64,000 bases of DNA, taken from contig CAVUKA010000001.1 of NCBI GenBank assembly GCA_963741945.1, positions 832,001-896,000 of the forward strand. The letters run 5' to 3'. This stretch comes from an uncultured Gemmatimonadales bacterium (lineage in GTDB: Bacteria > Gemmatimonadota > Gemmatimonadetes > Longimicrobiales > RSA9). The notes beneath the pieces are model-generated. The model saw only the letters and a list, made by a program, of their open reading frames with translations. It did no database searches and was not told the DNA's origin. Each line of letters starts with the position of its first letter. The first letter of the stretch is position 1. The translations under genes were made by a program, and so were the position numbers. Below, one piece after another: positions 14,359 to 25,864 of this stretch.

Positions 14359-14458
14359 CGACGTTTCCAGGTTGGCGACCCGCCACGCCGGGACCTTCAG
14401 CGCGAGACCACCTTCGAACCTGCACTTCCGTCACCAGCTCCAACACGGCCGCGGCGGG
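14359..14458. repeat. Degenerate attC-like repeat (left arm and central stem only)
   Basis: cgACGTTTCCAGGTTGGCGACCCGCCACGCC...CGCGGCGGG matches intact copies; TAAC mutated, right arm missing. A shorter remnant lies at 14284-14306. Confidence 0.75.
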
Positions 14459-14762
14459 CCTTTCGACCGCCCCGACTATCACCTTGACTCTGTGGTCGGC
14501 AATGGCAGCTGCCCCATCATCGACGCGAGTGTCTCGGCAACGGCCGCGGGGCTCCTCCTTGCCAGCGGTAGTTCAGCAACCCTGCCCCATTCTGGAGGGT
14601 TCCGAACGGCCAGAACCCACTCTGCATCCCGGGTTCAGCCCCTTTGATACAATGGAGGGGGAAGCCCCTGTTTGTTCTCCGACGTGCGTCGCCTTGTTTC
14701 CCTGATCACTGCCAGCGCTCCCCTCACCCTCTCCGCCAACGAGGGGGCCGCATGCATGGACC

Positions 14763-16185: not shown

Positions 16186-16229
16186 TAACATTCCCAGGTT
16201 GGCGACCCGCCGCGCCCAAGCATCCAGCG
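16186..16229. repeat. Truncated attC-like repeat (left arm) abutting IS110 remnant
   Basis: TAACATTCCCAGGTTGGCGACCCGCCGCGCC, followed within a few bases by the transposase ATG. Confidence 0.85.
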
Positions 16230-16236
16230 GCGCACC

Positions 16237-17025
16237 ATGCTGCACACGGGGATCGATCTGCATAAGCGCACCTGCGTTCTGGCCACGGTGGACGCCGACG
16301 GCGAAGTCGTGGCCGAAGCGGAGCTCCGAACCCGTCGGGCGGCCATCGCCCGCTACTTCGCGCAGCTCCCGCCGCACCGAGCCACAGTCGAAGCCACCAG
16401 CAGCTGGTACTGGATCCGGGACCTGCTGGAGGCCCACATGATCTCCGCTGAGCTCCGACCGCTCCGCGACGTGATGCGGACCCGGCTCCGCCTGATCCAG
16501 AAAGAGGTCGGGACTCGAAACAGCATTCACCGGCTCCCCGAGAAGCACAACGTTCGCAGTGTCGCGGACCTGCCGCCCATGGCCCAGCTCCAGGCCGCCT
16601 GCCACCGCGAGCAGAGGGAGCTTCTCCGGGAGCACGTCCGCCGACTCGAGAAGAGCCTCCACCCGCACCTGGTGCCTGACCCCGATGTCCAGCGGCTGCT
16701 TGCGATCCCCGGGATCGGCAAGGTCGGCGCCTGGAGGCAAGGACCGGCACCGGCACTCCAGGGACGGCAACAAATACCTGAAGATCGTCTTCTCGAACGC
16801 CGCGGTCCGCGCGATCCAGTACAACCCCGAGATCCGGAGCTGGTACGAACGGAAGGCGCGGAAAAAGAACCGGGCTGTGGCCGGGCTCTCGTCGCGAAGG
16901 AACTCGCTCGTATCGTCTACCATGTCCTCTCGAAGCGGGAGGACTTCAACCATCGCTTCAAAGGCATCCCGCTCCAGCGGCGGAAAAAGCAGGAGTGGCC
17001 ACGTCGGTCAAGCCCGGGCAGCTAA
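16237..17025 (+). pseudogene. IS110-family transposase, internally deleted and frameshifted
   Basis: GIDLHK, VEATSSWYW, LLAIPGIG; C-terminal part (GNKYLK...AAVRA...WYERK) in another frame, then VAKELARIVYHVL; much shorter than full-length IS110 transposases. Confidence 0.88.
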
Positions 17026-17311
17026 CTGGATCGGCTTTCGCCGAGTACCGCCCCGTTTGATTGGGAAGACCGACGTCGAGCCGCCGGACGTATCTGGGAC
17101 CGCTCCGCAGAGCGACCGCTGAAATGAGCAGCGGTGAGCCCGAAATGGTGTTTGGACGCCACTCCACGTCCGATTCGATACCCACTCCGGCCCGGCCAGA
17201 CCTGCCGTCGCTCGCGGAATCGAGAAGCGTCGCACGATCGAAAAGCGAATCAGAATCTCTGATTCCGCAGAGGATCATCGTGCTCCTTGACGAAGGACTT
17301 GTTAATGGTGT
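17026..17311 (+). ncRNA. IS110/IS1111-type 3' non-coding end, candidate bridge/seek RNA
   Basis: ~285-bp non-coding tract after the transposase, with hairpins (ACCGCT...AGCGGT), an internal AATGGTGT identical to the element end, and a terminal TTGAC. Confidence 0.5.
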
Positions 17312-17363
17312 CAGGCGGTGTCCGCAAATCCAGGCCTTTCGCTCCGCAAACCGCCTCTCGCTC

Positions 17364-17393
17364 TTGAACTGCCGATCCCCTCCTGGGTATCAT
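17364..17393 (+). promoter_or_regulatory. Putative sigma70 promoter of inverted TA cassette
   Basis: TTGAAC-18bp-TATCAT followed by AGGAGG and ATG 17412. Confidence 0.5.
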
Positions 17394-17411
17394 CCGGCCA
17401 AGGAGGATCTC

Positions 17412-17630
17412 ATGACCGAACTACTCAAGAAGGCTTTCGACGAAGCGTCCAAACTCCCCAGCGAGCAGCAGGACGCCATCGCCGCTCTACTCCTGGAGGA
17501 GCTCGAGTCCGATCGAAACTGGGATCGGACCTTTGAAAACTCCCAGGACGACTTGGCGAAGCTCGCGAACGAAGCCCTCGCCGAAGACGCACGAGGTGAG
17601 ACGGAAAACCTCGACCCGTCCAAGCTTTGA
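17412..17630 (+). CDS. Putative type II antitoxin (72 aa)
   Basis: Acidic MTELLKKAFDEASKLPSEQQDAIA...WDRTF...LAKLANEAL; overlaps toxin start. Confidence 0.8.
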   Translation: MTELLKKAFDEASKLPSEQQDAIAALLLEELESDRNWDRTFENSQDDLAKLANEALAEDARGETENLDPSKL

Positions 17631-17896
17631 CCTCCCGCACCACTTCATCTTTTCGGAAGGCCTATTCCTCACTTCCTACCGACGTCCAGGAGCGGGCTCG
17701 CGAGGCCTTCGACCTCTTCTCCGCCAATCCGGCTCATCCGAGCCTGCAGTTCAAGCAGGTTCACGCGACCGAGCCGATCTTCTCAGCCCGCATATCGCTC
17801 CACTACAGAGCCTTGGCCCGCCGCGCCGACGATGACTGGATCTGGTTCTGGATCGGCTCACACGCCGACTATGACCAACTCTTGAAGCGCCTGTAG
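17627..17896 (+). CDS. RelE/ParE-superfamily toxin
   Basis: F..AY..LP..VQ..A...F..NP.HPSL.FK...SARI...YRAL...WFWIGSHADYD pattern. Confidence 0.82.
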   Translation: MTSRTTSSFRKAYSSLPTDVQERAREAFDLFSANPAHPSLQFKQVHATEPIFSARISLHYRALARRADDDWIWFWIGSHADYDQLLKRL

Positions 17897-17915
17897 CTCT
17901 GAAGCGGATGCCGCA

Positions 17916-18062
17916 TAACGTTTCCAGGCTACCGACCCGGCCCACCATGAACTGCAGGGCCGCGGCGAGTTTCGAATCCACACGCGCCCACCGAACGGCG
18001 CAACATTGCGGGCCGGGTACTCCGCAGCGACCGAAGGGAGCGGAGGCGCTAGCCGTCTGTTA
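17916..18062. repeat. attC-like recombination site (147 bp)
   Basis: TAACGTTTCCAGGCTACCGACCCGGCCC...GGGCCGGG...GGCGCTAGCCGTCTGTTA. Confidence 0.88.
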
Positions 18063-18241
18063 TCCGCTGCGCCTCCATCAGCCGCCTCTCCGTCCGCGTG
18101 TTCGCGTGCCCGGCGAAGCAGTTCCGAGTGTCGAAAGAACTGCCGGACCCGAGGTGGCTCGCCTCGGCGGGGCCCGCCTGCTCGAGAACGTGATCAAAAT
18201 CAAATTGATTTCGCTGTCTCCGTCTTGGAGGCGCTTGCGGC
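18063..18241. other. ORF-less cassette (179 bp) with internal hairpins
   Basis: Bounded by two repeats, has its own terminal inverted repeat, no convincing start codon/ORF. Confidence 0.7.
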
Positions 18242-18386
18242 TAACGTCTCCAGGTTGGCGACCCGCCGCGCCGATACCTCTAGCACGCGATCACCTTCGA
18301 AACAGCGGCAGCCTCACCAGCTTCAACACGGTCGCGGCGGGTTCTCCGGAGCGGCCGCAGGCCGCGCAGGCGCCAACCGTTTGTTA
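18242..18386. repeat. attC-like recombination site (145 bp)
   Basis: TAACGTCTCCAGGTTGGCGACCCGCCGCG...CGCGGCGGGTTCTCCGGAGCGGCCGCAGGCCGCGCAGGCGCCAACCGTTTGTTA. Confidence 0.9.
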
Positions 18387-18418
18387 ACCGCCGTGTTCTG
18401 CCCACAGCCTGGCGGACG

Positions 18419-18715
18419 TCACCTCCGGGCCTGCCAACGCTTCGGATCGCGGCGGGAATGGAAAACGGAGAGTACCACGATCTCTTCCGCGCTCACTCTG
18501 AAGAGAATGGCATATGGGAATCGCCGAACAACGGCCCTCCGGACATCCCGATACAGAATGGGAAATCGGAGAGGATTCCGCTGGATCGCTGAGAAAGCCG
18601 CATCGATGACGCGGACGAATTCCGCTCCCAAGCCCAAGGAACGCTCCGAATACCACGCTGCGGCTTCCTCGAGTTCGGCGTCGGCCGCAGGGCGAACAAC
18701 GAAGCGGCGGCTCAC
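18419..18715 (-). CDS. RelE/ParE family toxin
   Basis: PAADAELEEAAAWY....GLGAEF, RRAVVRRFPYAILF, VFHSRRDP. Confidence 0.9.
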   Translation of the reverse strand: MSRRFVVRPAADAELEEAAAWYSERSLGLGAEFVRVIDAAFSAIQRNPLRFPILYRDVRRAVVRRFPYAILFRVSAEEIVVLSVFHSRRDPKRWQARR

Positions 18716-18936
18716 CCGTACTTCTTGTACAACCGCTCCCGGACTTCCTCCCAGGGAATAGCAGAATCCGGGTCCGCTTCATGTTCTGCCAGCCTACGGT
18801 CCAGTTCCGCCTTCTGGGCCTCAGTTAATGGATAGGCGTCCGCGTCCGTAGCGATGCTGTCCCACAGGTCCTCCACCAACTGAATCCGCTCAGCGACCGA
18901 CAGCTTGAGCAGTTCCTCGATTGGTACACTCGACAT
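18712..18936 (-). CDS. Putative addiction module antitoxin (TIGR02574-like)
   Basis: LSVAERIQLVEDLWDSI...LTEAQKAELDRRL...IPWEEV; overlaps toxin start. Confidence 0.9.
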   Translation of the reverse strand: MSSVPIEELLKLSVAERIQLVEDLWDSIATDADAYPLTEAQKAELDRRLAEHEADPDSAIPWEEVRERLYKKYG

Positions 18937-19005
18937 CCGCAAGCTCCTTCCCTGAAGTCCCTTGCTCCTAATCTGCTACAGAAACGCCGAGTGGAACATG
19001 GGGGT

Positions 19006-19150
19006 TAACGTTTCCAGGTTGGCGACCCGCCGCGCCACAGCCTCCAGCGCTCGAACGCCTTCGAAACAACAACAATCTCACCAGCTTCATCACGGCTGCG
19101 GCGGGTTCTCCGGAGCTCGCGCAGCGAGCGGAGGCGCCAACCGTTTGTTA
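19006..19150. repeat. attC-like recombination site (145 bp)
   Basis: TAACGTTTCCAGGTTGGCGACCCGCCGCG...GCGGCGGG...GGCGCCAACCGTTTGTTA. Confidence 0.9.
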
Positions 19151-19700
19151 TCCGAAGCCCCACGGCGATGACCCCTCTTCAAGGCGCCCCGACTAGGCGC
19201 ATGAAAGGACGGAAAGCCGATTGCACCAGACGCCAGTAATACCCAAGGTCATCGGGCGATATCGACCAAGCGATCGTAACGAGTACTCCGATGGCGGTAT
19301 GGACCCAGGTAAACTTGCCTTGGCGCCTGGCTGTTTCTGCAAGGTAGTCTAACCTCCCACTGATGAACTTCTGTTGCTCCTCGCCTAACGAGTAACTTTC
19401 AAACAGTTTGGCCTCAAGTTCTTCAATTGAGTTGCGGATTTCGTCAGCTTCCTCAGCAGAAATCGGAGTGTCCTCAATCTCCTCTCTCGGCGAGAGCGTG
19501 AAGGATTCTTGGTATCTGGCCAGCTCCGTCCAGAGATCGCGGCTTTCCAATTCAAGCTTGAGGCGGTCGGCCCAATTCCAGCACAACTGCTTCTGCCCCT
19601 CCCAAGTTCCATTGTACACTTCTTCGATCCGCTTCTTCTTGTGGGTCCTCTAAACTATGTCGCGGTTTCTCTCTAAACTTTGTCGCGGCAAGGGCGTGAG

Positions 19701-20480
19701 CTAAGCGGCTTCAGAGTCAGGGGCCTCCTCCTGCTTATGGTGGCGGGTGCGGTAGGAGCGGCCGCGGAGCACGAAGTGGGTACCGCGCTCCAGGAGCCGA
19801 TCCAGAATCGCTTCCGCGAGATCGGCATCATGCAGCACCTGACCGAGGGCGGCCAGGGGTTTGTTGGTGGTCACGATCATGGGCCGGTGCTTCAGGTAGC
19901 GATCGTTGACCACCCGGTAGAGTACGTTGGCGGCATCGGCAGCGTAGCTCTGATAACCGAGTTCGTCGATCACCAGCACGTGCGGATGGACGTAGGGCTC
20001 GAGGGCTTCTTCCAGCCGTCCCTCCGCGGCTGCCTTCGAGAGGGCGCCGATCAGCTCGTCTGCGGTGGTGAAGCGGGCGTCGAAGCCGTTCTGGATGGCC
20101 CGATAGGCGATGGCCACGCCCATATGCGTCTTTCCCCGACCGGGCGGCCCCGTGAAGATCGCGGACCGCCCCTCGCTCACGAGCTCCGGCCCCAGCAGCG
20201 TGCCGAGCATCTGAAGGCGGACGCTGGTCTGGAAGGTGAAGTCGAATTCCTCGATGGTGCGGAGGAAGGGAAACTTCGCTTTGCGGACGTATCGGGTGAT
20301 CCGAGTCTGCGCCCGGTGGGCGATCTCCTCGGCGCAGAGTAGCTCGAGAAACGTGCGGTAGCTCATGCCCTCGTCCTCGGCCCGGATCACCAGGTCCGGA
20401 TAGAGGCGTCGGACCGTGGGCAGGTGAAGACGGTGGAGCATCGCATCCAGATCGTCCAGCGGCACGGGAGTGCTGATCAT
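19701..20480 (-). CDS. istB: IS21 helper ATPase IstB
   Basis: AKFPFLRTIEEFDF, Walker A GPPGRGKTH, LVIDELGY, EAILDRLL. Confidence 0.95.
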   Translation of the reverse strand: MISTPVPLDDLDAMLHRLHLPTVRRLYPDLVIRAEDEGMSYRTFLELLCAEEIAHRAQTRITRYVRKAKFPFLRTIEEFDFTFQTSVRLQMLGTLLGPELVSEGRSAIFTGPPGRGKTHMGVAIAYRAIQNGFDARFTTADELIGALSKAAAEGRLEEALEPYVHPHVLVIDELGYQSYAADAANVLYRVVNDRYLKHRPMIVTTNKPLAALGQVLHDADLAEAILDRLLERGTHFVLRGRSYRTRHHKQEEAPDSEAA

Positions 20481-21883
20481 GAGGCCGCCTCCTTCGCCAC
20501 GAGTCCCATCACGTACTCCGCCCCGATCAGGCGCTGAAAGAGCGCTCGCTGGAGCAGCCGGAGGAAACGCTCCTGGCCCACCTCCTCCAGCAGGGCGAAG
20601 AGCCGCTCGACGTCTCCTTTCCAGGTGTAAGGACGAGAGTGGATGAGTTCGGTCAGGTAGCCCTCACCGATGGGCCCCAGCTCCAGGATCCGCTCCCGCA
20701 TGAAGTAGAGGCGCTTCCGGGCGCCGGCCACGGCCGCCAGCTGCTCCGCCCTCTGGCCGGGCAGGTAGCTGGTAGTCCCCACTTTGGGAAAGCGTGGGTG
20801 GGTGGCCTCGAAGCGGGCACCGGTCGTGACGATCCGGACCCGGTCCGGGTACAGGTGCAGCGTGGCCGGAATCCCGCACGCCCCCGCCGGCATAGCGTAG
20901 CGGACTCCCTGGAAATCCACGAGGGCCGTGGGACCCACATGCACGGCGTAGCGCAGCCCGTATTCTGTGGGCGCAATGGCCAGCGGCTTCATGCGGGCCT
21001 GTTCGGTCACGAGCCGGAGCTTTGGGATCTCCTTCGTGGCGCGGGACGGCCGCTCCTCATTCACCCCCAGCAGCCACTCAAGGAGCTGACGGGGGAGGTC
21101 GTGATCGAGATCGGCGAAGCGGCGGGCTCGGAAGAAGCTCCGCTTCACCCAGCCCACAAGATTCTCCACCGAACCCTTCTGCTCGGGACTCCGCACCGCG
21201 CACAGCTCGATGGTGAAGCCGTAGTCGATGGCCACCTGCGCCAGGGTCGAGTTCCAGATCGGCCGGTCGCCGTCCCGGCCCACCACCACGGTCTTCGGAT
21301 TGTCGAAAACTACCCGGAGCGGCACGCCCCCCGAGTGCTCGAAGGCCGCGAGCAGCGCGCGCACCAGCGATTCGATCCGCTCGTCCGGCACGATCACCAC
21401 CCACACCCACCGCGAGTACTTTAGCCGGAAGGCCGCGAAGTGGACCCGCTTCTTCCGCCCGTCCAGCAGCCGGACGTCGGCCTGCCCGAAGTCGAACTGG
21501 GCGAACTCCCCCGCTACCCCCTCGAACCGCACCATCAGCTCCGCCGGCAGCTTCCCCTTCTCCAGCCGAAACACCCGATAGAAGGTGCTCTCGGCGAGCT
21601 GAACTCCTTCGTCACGAAGCAAGCGAAGGTACTCCAGCGGTGGAGCTTCCGGATCCTCCGCGATCAGATCCACCAGCCGCTGCTTCACCGCTGACCTCAC
21701 TGGCGGTCGGCCCACACCACGGCGCCGCCGCTCCGCCACGTCATCCCCGTCCTCTACCAGCGGCTCTTTGGCGATCCGCTGGATCGTCCGCACGGTGACG
21801 CCGAACTGCTCCGCAATCTGCTTCTTCTCTTCCCCCGCCTTCAGCAGAGCATGGACTGCATGTCGATCAATCATCCTGAGCAT
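20477..21883 (-). CDS. istA: IS21 transposase IstA
   Basis: N-terminal HTH, RFE...GEFAQFDFG, GGVP....FDNPKT, KGSVENLVG. Confidence 0.95.
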   Translation of the reverse strand: MLRMIDRHAVHALLKAGEEKKQIAEQFGVTVRTIQRIAKEPLVEDGDDVAERRRRGVGRPPVRSAVKQRLVDLIAEDPEAPPLEYLRLLRDEGVQLAESTFYRVFRLEKGKLPAELMVRFEGVAGEFAQFDFGQADVRLLDGRKKRVHFAAFRLKYSRWVWVVIVPDERIESLVRALLAAFEHSGGVPLRVVFDNPKTVVVGRDGDRPIWNSTLAQVAIDYGFTIELCAVRSPEQKGSVENLVGWVKRSFFRARRFADLDHDLPRQLLEWLLGVNEERPSRATKEIPKLRLVTEQARMKPLAIAPTEYGLRYAVHVGPTALVDFQGVRYAMPAGACGIPATLHLYPDRVRIVTTGARFEATHPRFPKVGTTSYLPGQRAEQLAAVAGARKRLYFMRERILELGPIGEGYLTELIHSRPYTWKGDVERLFALLEEVGQERFLRLLQRALFQRLIGAEYVMGLVAKEAAS

Positions 21884-22254
21884 CCTCCCCGCCCTCCGAT
21901 TCTCAGAGCCCTGAGCCCTCGGAACGGCGGCATTCTACGCTGTGGATGCCCTCAACTGCGACATAGTTTGGAGAGAATCAGCGACAGAATTTCGGGAACT
22001 CACACTTCTCGCCGGGGCAGAATCGAGCCCAATCTTGGCCCCGGAGGTAGTCAAACTGGAAGTAGAAGTCCGGGTCCGTTTTCAGCACCAAGCGGGACAC
22101 CCTCTGTTCTGAACCGTGGAGACTGGCGACCTCCATCCACTCGAGTCGGGCCGGGTCGAGCCCCGCCCCTTCGACTACCTCGAAAATCTCGTTCTTTCGA
22201 CTAGTTAGAAGAACTTGATTCATCGCACTCCAACGCGTGTGCAGGGGTTTCGGA

Positions 22255-22400
22255 TAACGTTTCCAGGTTGGCGACCCGCCGCGCCACAATCTCAAGCGCG
22301 CCACCGCCTCCCAAACTCCGACCTCGTCACTAGCTCCAGTGCGGCCGGCGGCGGGTTCTCCGGAGCGGCCGAAGGCCGCGTAGGCGCCAACCGTTTGTTA
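22255..22400. repeat. attC-like recombination site (146 bp)
   Basis: TAACGTTTCCAGGTTGGCGACCCGCCGCG...GCGGCCGAAGGCCGCGTAGGCGCCAACCGTTTGTTA. Confidence 0.9.
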
Positions 22401-22426
22401 TCTGACGTGCGCGCCCTCGAGGGTGA

Positions 22427-22678
22427 CTATGGCGTGGGCACCGAGGAGACATCTTTGTAGAGCGCGTCTGGAGCGAGATCGATATCACCTGGCCAAGTGA
22501 CGGTACCACTCTCCGGATCGACGCTCACCGAATTGAAGACGCTCTGATCCCGCCAAGCCGCGAACACGCCCTTGCCGACGAGTCCCGAAAGGTCCACCTC
22601 CCCTTCAGTGCCATCGGAGAACCGGATCCAAAGCCGGTAGTTCGGCCGCGTCTTCGCCTGCTCGATTCGATACAGCAT
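22427..22678 (-). CDS. DUF2442 family protein (putative TA component)
   Basis: YRLWIRFSDGTEGEVDL...GVF......F..V.VD...TVTWPGDIDLAPDALY. Confidence 0.85.
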   Translation of the reverse strand: MLYRIEQAKTRPNYRLWIRFSDGTEGEVDLSGLVGKGVFAAWRDQSVFNSVSVDPESGTVTWPGDIDLAPDALYKDVSSVPTP

Positions 22679-22686
22679 TTTCGCCC

Positions 22687-22947
22687 TCAGTTCAGAGGAT
22701 CGATCTTCCCGGGCGCCTCGTGCGCCTGCGCTCGCCTCCACGCCTCCGCCAACTCCCTCTGGTGCAAACTGGCCCATTCCATCACCAGACCCAAGGCTCT
22801 CGGCGGCAAACTCCCTTCCAACACCGACAGATCCTCAATCCTCACCAGAGCTTCCGCTCCGCCGTACCGCGCATGGAAATGCGGCGGCGCGTGGTCGCGG
22901 AAGTACATGTAGATCGAGATGCCGAAGAACTCCGAAACCTTTGGCAA
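22687..22947 (-). CDS. DUF4160 family protein (putative TA component)
   Basis: MPKVSEFFGISIYMYFRDHAPPHFHARY...LVMEWASLHQREL...W. Confidence 0.88.
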   Translation of the reverse strand: MPKVSEFFGISIYMYFRDHAPPHFHARYGGAEALVRIEDLSVLEGSLPPRALGLVMEWASLHQRELAEAWRRAQAHEAPGKIDPLN

Positions 22948-23015
22948 TACACCTCCGCCTCTAACGAGATCTCCGGCATCTTCGAAACTACCGCGAAGCC
23001 GAAGCGCATGTCAGA

Positions 23016-23164
23016 TAACGTTTCCAGGTGAGCGACCCCGCTACCACGACCTCACCTGGCGCCGCCTCCTTCGAAACTTCCCGACATCCTTTGAGCAGCG
23101 CCAGCACCTGTCCGCGGGGTACTCCGAAGCGACCGAAGGGAGCGAAGGCGCTCACCGTTTGTTA
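23016..23164. repeat. attC-like recombination site (149 bp)
   Basis: TAACGTTTCCAGGTGAGCGACCCCGC...GCGGGG...GGCGCTCACCGTTTGTTA (compensatory changes in the outer stem). Confidence 0.9.
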
Positions 23165-23574
23165 TCTGAAGCCCCGTTCCCACCCGTCGGATCAGCTCGG
23201 ACCTGCGGGGGCTCACTGGAAAGTGGCTGGTTCACCAGATCCCAAGCCACGTCAATAAACTCCACTTCGAACCAGCGGTTGAACGTCTTCCAGTCCCGTT
23301 TCTTCGGCCATAGCGCCGGATCTGTATACCAGCTGTCGAGAGCGATCTCGAACATCAGATCGAAGTTGTCCCGGATCCAGGCTTCCGAATCCGGCGTCAT
23401 GTCGAACTGCGGGATCAGGAACGCCTCCACGGCCTTCTCCGCGACTTCCTCACTCACCGGCGGTCCCGGTCCCGGGTCCGCCTCCCGCACCCAGTCGACG
23501 AATGGCTGCTTCGGCCGCAGCACGACGAGGCCACGATTCAGGAACCAGATCTCCCCACCGTCAGTTTCAGCCAT
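23152..23574 (-). CDS. Conserved hypothetical cassette protein; stop codon inside the repeat
   Basis: LNR..VVLRPKQPFVDWV...FEIALDSWYTDPALWP..R...TF..WF.VEF. Confidence 0.8.
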   Translation of the reverse strand: MAETDGGEIWFLNRGLVVLRPKQPFVDWVREADPGPGPPVSEEVAEKAVEAFLIPQFDMTPDSEAWIRDNFDLMFEIALDSWYTDPALWPKKRDWKTFNRWFEVEFIDVAWDLVNQPLSSEPPQVRADPTGGNGASDNKR

Positions 23575-23597
23575 CCGCTTTCCTGAGGGGTTTCAGA

Positions 23598-23741
23598 TAA
23601 CGTTCAATGGTTGGCGACCGCCGCGCCGAACCTCCAGCGCTCTTCGATCTCTGAATCCAAGCAGCCCTTCCAGCATCAGCACACGGGCCGCGGCGGTACT
23701 CCGGAGCGAGCAACGCGAGCGCAGGCGCCAACCTAGTGTTA
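23598..23741. repeat. attC-like recombination site (144 bp)
   Basis: TAACGTTCAATGGTTGGCGACCGCCGCG...CGCGGCGGT...GGCGCCAACCTAGTGTTA. Confidence 0.88.
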
Positions 23742-23780
23742 TACGCAGTGCCCGCGCTGGGCCCTGGCCCGACCGACTCC

Positions 23781-24392
23781 TCAGCGCTTCCGTTTGAGCG
23801 TGCCCCACGCCGATACGAGCATCAGGTCATGACCAGCCTGGGCGAGGCTGAACTCTTCGGGATCGAATCCGTCTCCGAGCCATTCGATCTTCTCCCGCAC
23901 CCACTCTTCGAGCTCACCGATTGGAGTCCCGAGTGCTGCTAGCATTTCGGTATAGGCGTGGGGTCCACCGCAATCCTCTGGAGGGCCCCGACGAGCCCCC
24001 GCGACGACCATGGGCAGCCAGTCGAGGTCCGGATTGCCCTCCGGCTCCTCGATTTCTACAACGTGCCGCCACTCATCTCCCCAGTCGTACACGTACTCCA
24101 GCCGATCACCAGGGCCGAGGCCCAACCGGTCGAGACGCGCCTTGGTCGAATCCAAGCCCTCGGCCTCGTCATCCGGTGCCTCGTAGTGTTCCTCACCGAC
24201 CTGGAAGCTGTAGAGATGGTAGTCGTACCAGTCGAACAACAACTGGATGATTCGATGCAATTCGTGCAGGGTCGTCCGTTTCGGGAGCAGTACACGCCGC
24301 CAGATCCGGGGCTCGATGTCCTCGAGATAGATCTGCACCTGAAAATGGTCGTGGTCTGTCTTCACACGATCCGCCCGACGTGGCTGAATCAA
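23781..24392 (-). CDS. Plasmid pRiA4b ORF-3 family protein (first cassette)
   Basis: PRIWRRV....TL.ELH..IQ..F.W.DYHLYSF, YVYDWGDEWRH, PPEDCGG; GGAGG before TTG start. Confidence 0.9.
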   Translation of the reverse strand: MIQPRRADRVKTDHDHFQVQIYLEDIEPRIWRRVLLPKRTTLHELHRIIQLLFDWYDYHLYSFQVGEEHYEAPDDEAEGLDSTKARLDRLGLGPGDRLEYVYDWGDEWRHVVEIEEPEGNPDLDWLPMVVAGARRGPPEDCGGPHAYTEMLAALGTPIGELEEWVREKIEWLGDGFDPEEFSLAQAGHDLMLVSAWGTLKRKR

Positions 24393-24428
24393 GCTCTTTC
24401 CTCCAGCAGAAGCATGTCAGGCCATTGC

Positions 24429-24448
24429 GTATAACTACTGCGTTATAC
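24429..24448. other. Putative attI-like primary recombination site
   Basis: GTATAAC-TACTGC-GTTATAC exactly where the first cassette's terminal inverted repeat ends. Confidence 0.7.
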
Positions 24449-24455
24449 TGCGTTC

Positions 24456-24471
24456 CCGAACTCGTGTTCGG
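24456..24471. promoter_or_regulatory. CGAAC-N4-GTTCG palindrome (LexA-box-like or recombinase accessory site)
   Basis: CCGAAC-TCGT-GTTCGG adjacent to the attI-like site. Confidence 0.4.
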
Positions 24472-24670
24472 TAGGATGTCGGCGGGCCGGATGTTTGCGC
24501 CGGTCGTTCGGGAAAGGTCCTTATCAGTTGTCGGAGCCACCCACCCCGGCCGCCTGACCCGAATCATCTCTATTTGGGGCCATTCTTGTTCAGAAGCAAT
24601 GACCTTGTACAGGGGCTCCGCACGGCCGTTTGCACGGGGCTGATTCGAGCGGCCGACGGCCGCTTCCCCC

Positions 24671-25750
24671 TCACGCTGCGTCCAGCGGGTTCACGATCCG
24701 GGTCAGGTCGCCGCGGCTGACGTGGGTATAGATCTGGGTGGTGCGGGGGCTCGTGTGGCCGAGGAGCTCCTGGATGTGGCGGAGGTTGACGCCGGCCTCC
24801 AGGAGGTGGGTGGCGAAGCTGTGGCGGAGGGTGTGCACGGTGGCGTGCTTGCGTACGCCGGACCGGGCCAGGGCGCGCTCGAAGATCTTCTGCACGGACC
24901 GCGTGGTCAGATGGCGGCCGGGCCGGCCCCCGGGGAAGATCCAGTCGTCGGCGTGGAGGCGGGCAACGACGGGCTCGAGGGCGGCGGCCGCGGCATCGGC
25001 CAGCAGCGTGTAGCGGTCCTTCCTCCCCTTCCCTGCGCGGACACGGACCAGCCCTCGTCCGGAATCCACGTCGCCGACCCTGAGGCGTACCACCTCGCTG
25101 ACGCGGAGGCCGGCGGAGTACGCCAGTATCAGGGCCAGACGGTGCGTCGGGTTGGCGGGGGCGTCGAGGATGCGGCGCACTTCGTCGCGGGAGAGGACGG
25201 CGGGGAGCTGGCGCTCCCGCTTCGGGCGGCGGATCGGGTCCAGCGCGAGCGGGCGGCCGACGAGCCGCGCCAGGAGCCGGATGGCGCTGATCGCCTGGTG
25301 CTGGTAGGAGGTCGACCGGTCGTCGGCCTCGAGCCGGAGCAGGTGAGCGCGGACGTGCTCCGTCGACAGCTCGGTCGCGGCCTTCGGGAAAGCTTCGAAG
25401 AACCGACGGACGTGGCCGACGTAGTTCGTCCGCGTACGGGGGCCGTAGCCCTGGAGCCGGAGCTCTTCCGAGAGGCGCTGGAGGAGCGCCGCCGCCGGAT
25501 CGGTGCCGTTCGCCCGGCGAAACGGGACGCGGACCAGGTGCATGAGACCGGGGTCGACGCGGAAGCTCGCGTCGGGCGCCCGGAGCAGCGCGTTCAGCGC
25601 CTCCTCGGTGCGCGGCAGCAGCCACGCCGATCGGCCGGGGTCCCAGTGCCGGCCTGGGATCGAGCGGACGTGCCCGACCAGCCCCGCGTCATAGGGGAAC
25701 CGGACTTCGATCCGCGTTTCCGCGTCCATGAGCCAAACAGAGGTCGCCAT
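24671..25750 (-). CDS. Tyrosine recombinase (SAM-like + catalytic domains) with extra N-terminal HARP-like domain; lacks IntI insertion
   Basis: YSAGLRVSE, GKGRKDR, HTLRHSFATHLLE, LLGH, TTQIYTHV; N-term IEVRFPYD...RSIPGRHWDPGRSAWLLP. Confidence 0.93.
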   Translation of the reverse strand: MATSVWLMDAETRIEVRFPYDAGLVGHVRSIPGRHWDPGRSAWLLPRTEEALNALLRAPDASFRVDPGLMHLVRVPFRRANGTDPAAALLQRLSEELRLQGYGPRTRTNYVGHVRRFFEAFPKAATELSTEHVRAHLLRLEADDRSTSYQHQAISAIRLLARLVGRPLALDPIRRPKRERQLPAVLSRDEVRRILDAPANPTHRLALILAYSAGLRVSEVVRLRVGDVDSGRGLVRVRAGKGRKDRYTLLADAAAAALEPVVARLHADDWIFPGGRPGRHLTTRSVQKIFERALARSGVRKHATVHTLRHSFATHLLEAGVNLRHIQELLGHTSPRTTQIYTHVSRGDLTRIVNPLDAA

Positions 25751-25864
25751 GACCGAGTCTGAACCGGCCACCGGGGCATGGGAATGGCCGGATCGGCCAT
25801 TCTGCTCTCGGCGGCCGCGGCTCGGCCCCTCCGTGCGCGGGCTCGGCTTGGTCGCCCGCCGTGC

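Follow-up and report, generated by a model that had tools for sequence, protein, structure and literature searches.

Integron integrases (IntI) are defined by an extra domain, and arrays lying beside recombinases that lack it have been set aside as non-integrons; in one survey, intermediate recombinases numbered only four, with fewer than three attC sites nearby, and such proteins were judged not to be IntI (Cury et al. 2016). In IntI, the I2 region of this domain reads the extrahelical bases of the folded site, and according to the working model of the field it was by acquiring the I2 helix that single-strand recombination became possible (Escudero et al. 2020), the enzyme having an ancestral double-strand activity (Escudero et al. 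2016; Escudero et al. 2020). Here, an array of attC-like hairpin sites and cassettes is described that lies beside the gene of a tyrosine recombinase without such a domain, in 64,000 nt of DNA from an uncultured Gemmatimonadales bacterium (assembly GCA_963741945.1, contig CAVUKA010000001.1, positions 832,001 to 896,000; G000:C1:832001-896000). This whole stretch is referred to below as the window. The two ends of each cassette are complementary to one another for 15-16 positions, with G opposite T at position 11. The explanation proposed, and held to be moderately probable, is an integron-like system run by the insertion-less recombinase, in which a long R stem forms in the excised, folded cassette and the wobble marks both strand and structure.

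Structure of the hairpin sites

Six full TAAC...GTTA repeats of 144-149 nt (~145 nt) were found on the + strand of the window (Table 1), their termini being invariant in 6/6. Of the 40 pairs in the consensus fold, 12 show compensatory changes. The fold is composed of an R box in which TAAC and GTTA pair, an unpaired spacer between the R and L boxes (6-7 nt vs 3-4 nt), an L box of 8 bp whose stem also shows compensatory changes, an upper stem and a 28-nt side hairpin. The side hairpin belongs to the 3' half of the + strand, which in classical bottom strands is the part with the extrahelical bases; in this fold, which is a structure prediction only, single bulged bases are absent and the hairpin occupies that arm instead. 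According to this predicted anatomy, the repeat is an enlarged integron attC site, and its covariation, together with the polarity of the array (see below), suggests that the sites recombine as the folded bottom strand.

A covariance model was built from the six full sites, which match it by construction. It finds 14 sites in the genome of the window, seven in the window array and seven in a second array, and it finds sites in 13/61 related genomes (the window's own genome, G000, is included and the unpublished G020 is among them), with arrays that reach ~20 hairpin sites. No Rfam family matches the hairpin sites. On 32 loci of more distant relatives of the recombinase the six-site model gave zero matches, and it is specific to the Gemmatimonadota site type.

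Complementarity of the cassette ends

The initial annotation of the window had listed six cassettes in which the sequence following GTTA is complementary, over ~15-16 bp, to the sequence preceding the next TAAC, with G opposite T at position 11. With arm positions numbered from the G of GTTA, and each right arm set against the following left arm in reverse complement, the coordinates and letters of these arms are correct (Table 1), and in 6/6 the + strand has G at position 11, with T opposite. All six cassettes were confirmed, and one of 179 nt without an open reading frame (ORF) had been passed over. Cassette 7 (17310/17919) has mismatches at positions 3, 5, 10 and 11; its right arm is degenerate because the start of the cassette abuts an IS110-like remnant, and in its homologue in G001 (L042 2255) the GTTA start is intact.

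The same arms were compared in arrays taken from seven genera (G000, G001, G005, G013, G032, G033 and G036), in which 88 further sites were located. From 81 consecutive site pairs, 17 without GTTA on one arm and six duplicates were removed, leaving 58 unique cassettes. Position 11 is G.T in 53 of these, T.T in three, G.A in one and G.G in one, and a Watson-Crick pair in none (0/58), so that what had been noted for six cassettes is general in the seven genomes. At positions 12-16, identity is 4.10/5 within cassettes versus 1.93/5 between cassettes, and the cognate total of 238/290 was reached by 0/10,000 re-pairings, the best of which gave 160; chance is excluded as the source of the cassette-specific pairing. 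As annotated, the arms differ between cassettes and belong to individual excisable units. Pairing stops at 15-16 in 30/58 cassettes, and positions 17-24 are at background (2.33/8 vs 2.18/8). The conserved arm letters (T2 T3 A4, G8-C, G11.T and T12-A) span ~11 bp; G8 is retained on both arms in 56/58 cassettes, and position 10 is Watson-Crick in 41, wobble in eight and mismatched in nine.

Among homologous cassettes, two independent compensatory double changes keep the pairing; only these two clean events were used, the 102 'single' changes being mostly mis-paired neighbours or compound cassettes. Because G and T are kept while their neighbours vary, and because of the two double changes, the pattern at position 11 points to ongoing selection, and the covariation of the cassette ends is direct evolutionary evidence of selection on the joined (excised) form. 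The idea that the wobble is a trace of how cassettes are made is not borne out, since the two letters persist across genera and in distant metagenomic relatives. In the comparison that the annotation had itself named as its refutation, pairing proved better within cassettes than between them and position 11 proved conserved.

Across the 4.09 Mb of the genome, 12 pairs bear the signature (GTTA...TAAC with G/A at position 11), always in the two arrays and on one strand, versus 4, 1 and 1 in shuffled genomes. A model-free scan of recombinase-bearing loci (1.65 Mb) for GTTA...TAAC pairs with at least 14/16 matches gave 26, versus 3-12 in shuffles; only pairs with the position-11 signature were counted, the rest being comparable to the shuffles. 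Cassettes with G/A at position 11 number 11 in eight public metagenome or metagenome-assembled genome (MAG) contigs, beside insertion-less relatives of the recombinase that are 31-45% identical to it. In locus L149 the gene is followed directly by three consecutive signature cassettes, separated by hairpins of ~120 nt that share the architecture of the window sites, and L156, L172, L197 and L056 have one each. In L158 (one), L159 (two) and L160 (one) the array is upstream of the gene, a divergent layout in which a T.T and G.T doublet at positions 10-11 lies inside at least 22 paired positions. In every metagenome or MAG case, the G.T-bearing strand is the predicted bottom strand for the layout. 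It was also observed that in L159 (2843-6018) one site has the halves of its L box ~430 nt apart, as if there were an insert in the hairpin loop. As a mark for finding such cassettes, GTTA N3 G N2 G / T N2 C N3 TAAC together with cassette-specific pairing could be used, including for those at present classed in their genomes as clusters without an integrase.

Pairing beyond the R box is not in itself unusual. Most classical cassettes self-pair beyond their 7-nt R boxes, to 9-11 consecutive nt (Bouvier et al. 2009). The initial annotation was right that the stem is longer here and wrong in taking 7 bp as the classical limit. In classical controls beside genuine IntI (Motiliproteus L075 and Vibrio atypicus L070), 11/15 comparisons gave uninterrupted runs of 9-12, and the other 4/15 gave runs of 4-5, two of them from overlapping site calls; these sites were called by motif anchoring, which replaced a first automatic caller that was too crude (5 sites). 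One Vibrio cassette reaches a run of 14 nt, and another resumes pairing after a mismatch at position 10. End pairing past 7 nt is thus ordinary, and what is new is the obligate wobble followed by 4-5 further cassette-specific pairs, an excess of ~4-6 bp plus the wobble over classical pairing. An obligate non-Watson-Crick pair at position 11 with 4-5 more pairs after it was not described in the literature searched.

Polarity of the array and folding of the joined ends

A common layout, consisting of an arm ending in TAAC, a non-attC sequence and the 3' end of the recombinase gene, was found in G000, G001, G013, G032, G036 and G033. The distal end of the array is a hairpin site, and the recombinase-proximal end is a cassette left arm with TAA|C at an attI-like junction (Table 1); a related attI-like motif is present at the end of the second array. 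Since the attI-like end is proximal and most cassette ORFs are on the - strand, the cassettes are read on the - strand, away from ~24432-24475. The crossover would then be at G|TTA on the - strand, with the + strand as the putative bottom strand, and G.T is therefore on the strand expected to fold, the top strand having A.C. This asymmetry agrees with the suggestion in the annotation that the wobble could mark a strand.

Modelled circle junctions gain on average 7.2 kcal/mol in folding stability over their sites within the array (50/55), in line with arms that would pair only once the cassette ends are joined, and G.T is paired in the minimum-energy fold of the junction in 45/55. In whole-site folds, bottom minus top strand is -0.47 kcal/mol, the bottom strand being the more stable in 30/55. 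With so tiny a bias the wobble cannot act through stability alone and, taken by itself, it was rejected as a sufficient thermodynamic basis for strand selection.

A rather unlikely alternative is that G and T at position 11 are by-products of two separate duplex requirements, for a G near the hairpin and for an A/T at the cassette start, whether through an ATG-like signal on the coding strand or through a different contact in each half-site. Such requirements would suit letters that are individually conserved (G in 55/58 cassettes and T on the other arm in 56/58), a next position that is mostly T-A (38/58) and folding energies with little strand bias. However, G follows AT on the coding strand, at position 13, in only 26/58, so ATG is unconserved and an A at position 11 as part of a conserved ATG was rejected; the 4-5 cassette-specific pairs past position 11 are sensible only if the arms meet; and at the loci of divergent layout the doublet of T.T and G.T is embedded in the long paired stretch.

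The adjacent tyrosine recombinase

The recombinase beside the array has a HARP-like N-terminus (residues ~8-80), a SAM-like core-binding domain and a catalytic domain (PF13495 and PF00589, the latter with 149.5 bits), and across 34 family members its catalytic R223, K248, H313, R316, H339 and Y348 do not vary. On the integron integrase model TIGR02249 it scores 208.4 bits, under the cut-off of 265, in two stretches that leave profile positions 180-234 unmatched; on XerA it scores 199.6 bits. In comparison with VchIntIA (2A3V) and with an IntI of its own genome (L148:4022-4972, 38% identity), it is ~41 residues shorter at precisely the place of the IntI-specific domain (the I2 helix, ~35 residues near patch III). 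The spacing from the GKGxKxR hairpin to HxLRH is 65-66 in the recombinase family (66 in the window protein); XerC/D-like proteins have a spacing of 70-76 and nine IntI one of 106-108.

Homologues that are 42-69% identical to the window recombinase number at least hundreds, and in each of the 33 aligned with it the ~80-residue N-terminal domain is present and the insertion absent. In a tree of 68 proteins, from a quick maximum-likelihood search with SH-like approximate likelihood ratio test (SH-aLRT) support, the family is a clade (95) and the nine IntI are a clade (100) that excludes it; the family, IntI, two proteins of candidate phyla and one long branch form a group (96) apart from XerC/D (100). 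The protein has the catalytic domain and the attI-like and array neighbourhood of an integron integrase, whereas the extra domain is absent, the TIGR02249 score is under the cut-off and its place in the tree is outside the IntI clade. Judged by its amino acid sequence, the enzyme beside the array falls outside the canonical integron integrases, a point that had gone unseen in the annotation. A tree by Cury et al. (2016) has 21 insertion-less recombinases near attC sites, and the family may or may not be among them.

HARP is a five-stranded sheet against two helices, present at the N-terminus of UvsW, and is a junction-specific DNA-binding module (PMC4666394). The full-length model of the window recombinase has a mean predicted local distance difference test (pLDDT) score of 88.5, with the N-terminal 80 residues above 90. 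As the whole-protein Foldseek search was dominated by the recombinase fold, the N-terminus was folded separately (14 sequences, pLDDT 80), which gave five strands and two helices. In a Foldseek-independent search, the N-terminus of T4 UvsW came first (Z 7.3 and 7.1), with XPB N-terminal domains at Z 6.0 and 5.9 (root-mean-square deviation, rmsd, 1.9-2.0 Å over 54 residues) and the SMARCAL1 HARP domain at Z 4.2 (rmsd 1.9 Å, 23% identity). Additionally, the N-terminal profile of the family matches the SMARCAL1 HARP chain (4o66) with E 0.007, and Pfam HARP (PF07443) is the top weak match in 5/14 members, with a best E of 6e-5. Protein Atlas returned for the N-terminal domain scores of at most 0.84 and unnamed clusters. 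On these models and matches, a HARP-like assignment of the N-terminal domain is moderately supported; no paper was found, in the literature searched, with a HARP domain and a tyrosine recombinase together.

Association of recombinase and arrays in other genomes

Orthologues of the recombinase (50-89% identity) were found beside arrays of the same layout in G001, G013, G032, G036 and G005, and partly in G033, and the insertion-less recombinase adjoins arrays in six genomes of six genera. An orthologue is present in 10/13 genomes with arrays versus 10/48 without detected arrays, these being related genomes that include the unpublished G016, G017 and G020. In the genome of the window, the second array has seven sites on the same strand at C1:350585-358111 (locus L055, G000:C1:350585-358701). 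It ends in a remnant of the attI-like sequence of the window, has no recombinase gene beside it and has one 627-nt cassette in common with the window array.

The genome of the window also contains two genuine IntI genes over the TIGR02249 cut-off, with 328 and 361 bits (Table 1), one of them truncated by an IS21 insertion sequence (istB at L147 2425-3249). Their loci have few sites, of a different type of ~70 nt, and an attI-like motif beyond the 3' end that resembles that of the window. As their genes and site types indicate, two kinds of cassette system coexist in this genome. Tandem repeats of 9-nt units (GGGCGTCGC-like and CCCGTGGAG-like) in long runs were also seen near the true IntI loci (L147 10466-10734 and L148 10888-11024), probably inside coding sequence.

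In the genome of the window, the IntI could act in trans. Extended to all arrays, this would make them clusters of attC sites lacking integron-integrases (CALINs) served in trans by canonical IntI, with an unrelated recombinase as neighbour and with arms that are a lineage-specific long extension of the R box. The two IntI genes, their attI-like motifs and the second array without an adjacent recombinase fit such an arrangement, which is nonetheless unlikely: no IntI over the TIGR02249 cut-off was found in the five other array-bearing genomes searched (G001, G013, G032, G033 and G036; G001 has a split one), the insertion-less recombinase adjoins the arrays of the six genera in a fixed layout with the attI-like junction at its 3' end, the association is repeated by the distant relatives in public metagenome and MAG contigs, and the true IntI loci have another site type.

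Proposed mechanism

It is proposed that strand exchange would take place at TAA|C on the + strand (G|TTA on the - strand). With the crossover inside the R box, everything outside the crossover travels with the cassette. Excision would join the cassette ends, the + (bottom) strand would fold, and the ends would form an outer R stem of 10 Watson-Crick pairs, the obligate G.T at position 11 and 4-5 more pairs. As the ends must pair in the folded junction, they would co-vary per cassette and differ between cassettes, and selection on this junction would keep the ends of each cassette complementary. Recognition may depend on the conserved letters over the ~11-bp arm, as in Xer-type recombinase sites, and the acting enzyme would be the adjacent tyrosine recombinase, of a clade beside IntI, which has a HARP-like and possibly junction-recognising domain instead of the insertion. 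The wobble would exist only in the folded bottom strand, since the duplex has G-C and A-T and the top strand A.C, so it could tell the enzyme both 'folded' and 'right strand'. The remaining 3-4 pairs, after the conserved letters, would close the helix past the wobble and end the stem sharply, and this sharp end would be a duplex/single-strand junction where the HARP-like domain could bind; otherwise this domain may read the three-way branch.

Several points weigh against an integron-like system run by this recombinase. Five of the 58 cassettes are without G.T, most of them apparently mis-paired neighbours after a missed site, and the source genomes are related, so the cross-genome counts are not independent. 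The quick tree has SH-aLRT support only and a midpoint root, and in it the relation between the family and IntI is a polytomy. All HARP-like Z scores are under the caution level of 8 of the tool, and on PF07443 the window protein is below threshold (16.4 bits versus a cut-off of 25). The classical extrahelical bases were not identified in the predicted fold, the folds favour the bottom strand only slightly, and the genome has genuine IntI genes of its own. Furthermore, no joint of a cassette circle or of a deletion was cleanly seen in public sequencing runs. Parts of the window are present in four runs from a single study, at shares between 0.39 and 0.07 and as assembled contigs only, and their joints and loose ends are explained by related arrays of other organisms with similar hairpins.

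It has also to be considered that the arms may pair within the array, on a single-stranded template, which would leave the ORF in a loop and bring the flanking sites close to each other for precise excision. This is compatible with the folded circle junction as substrate and not exclusive of it, and it is permitted by the same complementarity, by a 16-bp stem that is stable alone and by cassettes that are short (median ~600 nt); given that it would compete with the folding of the flanking hairpins, with which the GTTA/TAAC letters are shared, it is considered quite improbable. A structure that acts in RNA, where G.U wobbles are typical of helices, or that is a fossil of the first cassette-making process, the origin of cassettes being described as unknown (Cury et al. 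2016), is hardly credible, as the wobble is on the strand antisense to most ORFs and the mRNA would have A.C, the sites match nothing in Rfam, any linear transcript would have hundreds of nt between the arms, and a fossil would not keep a non-Watson-Crick pair in 58/58 across genera alongside compensatory changes elsewhere.

Cassette contents and inserted elements

The coordinates of the features are given in Table 1. Toxin-antitoxin cassettes are about half of the window array. The ORF region of cassette 4 is split by an IS21-family element (19648-21973), with 20-nt terminal inverted repeats that are 90% complementary. Within one hairpin site there is an IS110-family transposase remnant (~16237-17309), apparently frameshifted, with 60.9 bits on NF033542, below the cut-off. 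An IS1111/IS110 subgroup is known for targeting attC sites. Also, very short cassettes without ORFs (171-179 nt, and ~250 nt) were found repeated within single arrays with their arms intact, including 18063-18241 in the window, three copies in L042 (G001) and many copies in L045/L046 (G032).

Table 1. Features of the cassette array, of its neighbouring recombinase and of the IntI genes of the same genome. Positions are those of the window unless a locus is given; bits for hairpin sites are those of the covariance model.
Feature	Position	Strand	Remarks
attC-like site, degenerate, distal	14359..14481	+	64.6 bits, outside model training; TAAC -> CGAC, without GTTA end
attC-like site, 5' part	16186..16236	+	15.3 bits, E 0.021; interrupted by IS110-family remnant
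attC-like hairpin site	17916..18062	+	129.5 bits (training site)
attC-like hairpin site	18242..18386	+	158.3 bits (training site)
attC-like hairpin site	19006..19150	+	162.4 bits (training site)
attC-like hairpin site	22255..22400	+	153.4 bits (training site)
attC-like hairpin site	23016..23164	+	131.3 bits (training site)
attC-like hairpin site	23598..23741	+	120.7 bits (training site)
Cassette 1 arms	right 23738..23753, left 24420..24435	+	G11 at 23748, T11' at 24425; mismatches 11, 14
Cassette 2 arms	right 23161..23175, left 23587..23601	+	mismatch 11 only
Cassette 3 arms (DhiT/DhiA toxin-antitoxin)	right 22397..22412, left 23004..23019	+	mismatch 11 only
Cassette 4 arms (IS21 inside)	right 19147..19161, left 22244..22258	+	mismatch 11 only
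Cassette 5 arms	right 18383..18398, left 18994..19009	+	mismatches 8, 11
179-nt ORF-less cassette arms	right 18059..18076, left 18227..18245	+	G/T at 11, T.T at 10, 1-nt offset
Cassette 7 arms (ParE-like toxin-antitoxin pair, + strand)	right 17310..17325 (degenerate), left 17904..17919	+	12/16 match
ParE-like toxin pair	17413-17896	+	cassette content, opposite strand
TIGR02574 antitoxin with partner	18384-18942	-	cassette content
istB of IS21 element	19701-20480	-
istA of IS21 element	20477-21883	-
DhiT/DhiA toxin-antitoxin pair	22427-22947	-	cassette content
PRiA4_ORF3-family protein	23781-24392	-	cassette content
attI-like junction	24432..24475	.	cassette 1 left arm ends TAA|C, then array-independent sequence with short inverted repeat
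Tyrosine recombinase	24671..25771	-	366 aa from longest ORF (352-aa start also recorded); 3' end faces array
Genuine IntI gene with IntI-specific domain	G000:C6:4022-4972 (L148)
Genuine IntI gene with IntI-specific domain	G000:C1:1401596-1402444 (L147)

Comparison with known systems

Tentatively, and with somewhat less confidence than for the window itself, it is suggested that such loci form a widespread, unrecognised integron-like class, whose recombinases are kin to IntI without I2 and would recognise folded sites by means of the HARP-like domain and a fixed-length G.T stem. These recombinases either never had the I2 insertion or lost it, both versions falling within the same reading, and a sister system to integrons is a possibility. 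If true, hairpin-site cassette recombination would be independent of I2, and there would be a living comparison group for the origin of integrons. The arrays, in conserved synteny with an insertion-less, HARP-fused clade, are a natural test of whether I2 is required for hairpin recombination.

With Xer/dif and archaeal XerA the system shares a near-equal XerA score and conserved R-arm letters spanning ~11 bp, which is the usual arm length of Xer sites. Xer sites are, in contrast, short duplexes without cassette-specific complementary arms, whereas covariation here shows intrastrand pairing in a long hairpin. In the inverted-integrase integrons of the Treponema denticola group, the integrase gene is directed towards the array and attI is downstream of its 3' end, and these integrases are reported as genuine IntI with the additional domain. 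The gene orientation is the same as in the window, whose recombinase is without that domain; 'inverted integrase' chromosomal integrons are mentioned by Cury et al. (2016).

The N-terminal domain resembles HARP of SMARCAL1 and T4 UvsW and the N-terminus of XPB in its five strands and two helices and in a sequence similarity that, though weak, is specific. Forks and junctions are recognised by those domains, which are carried by superfamily 2 (SF2) motor proteins, whereas here the domain is on a tyrosine recombinase, a fusion not found in the literature searched.

The classical integrons of IntI1 and VchIntIA are the closest in organization. They have the same promoter-less cassette arrays, with imperfect palindromes of the RYYYAAC/GTTRRRY type, an unpaired spacer and an L box; a crossover inside the R box, so that the outer R-box letters belong to the next cassette; an attI junction beside the recombinase gene; and cassette ends that pair past 7 nt. 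The window array differs from them in its longer stem, of 15-16 bp (22 or more in some of the metagenomic relatives), whose position 11 is an obligate G.T, in sites of 144-149 nt with a 28-nt side hairpin where theirs have single extrahelical bases, and in a recombinase without the IntI-specific insertion and with an extra N-terminal domain.

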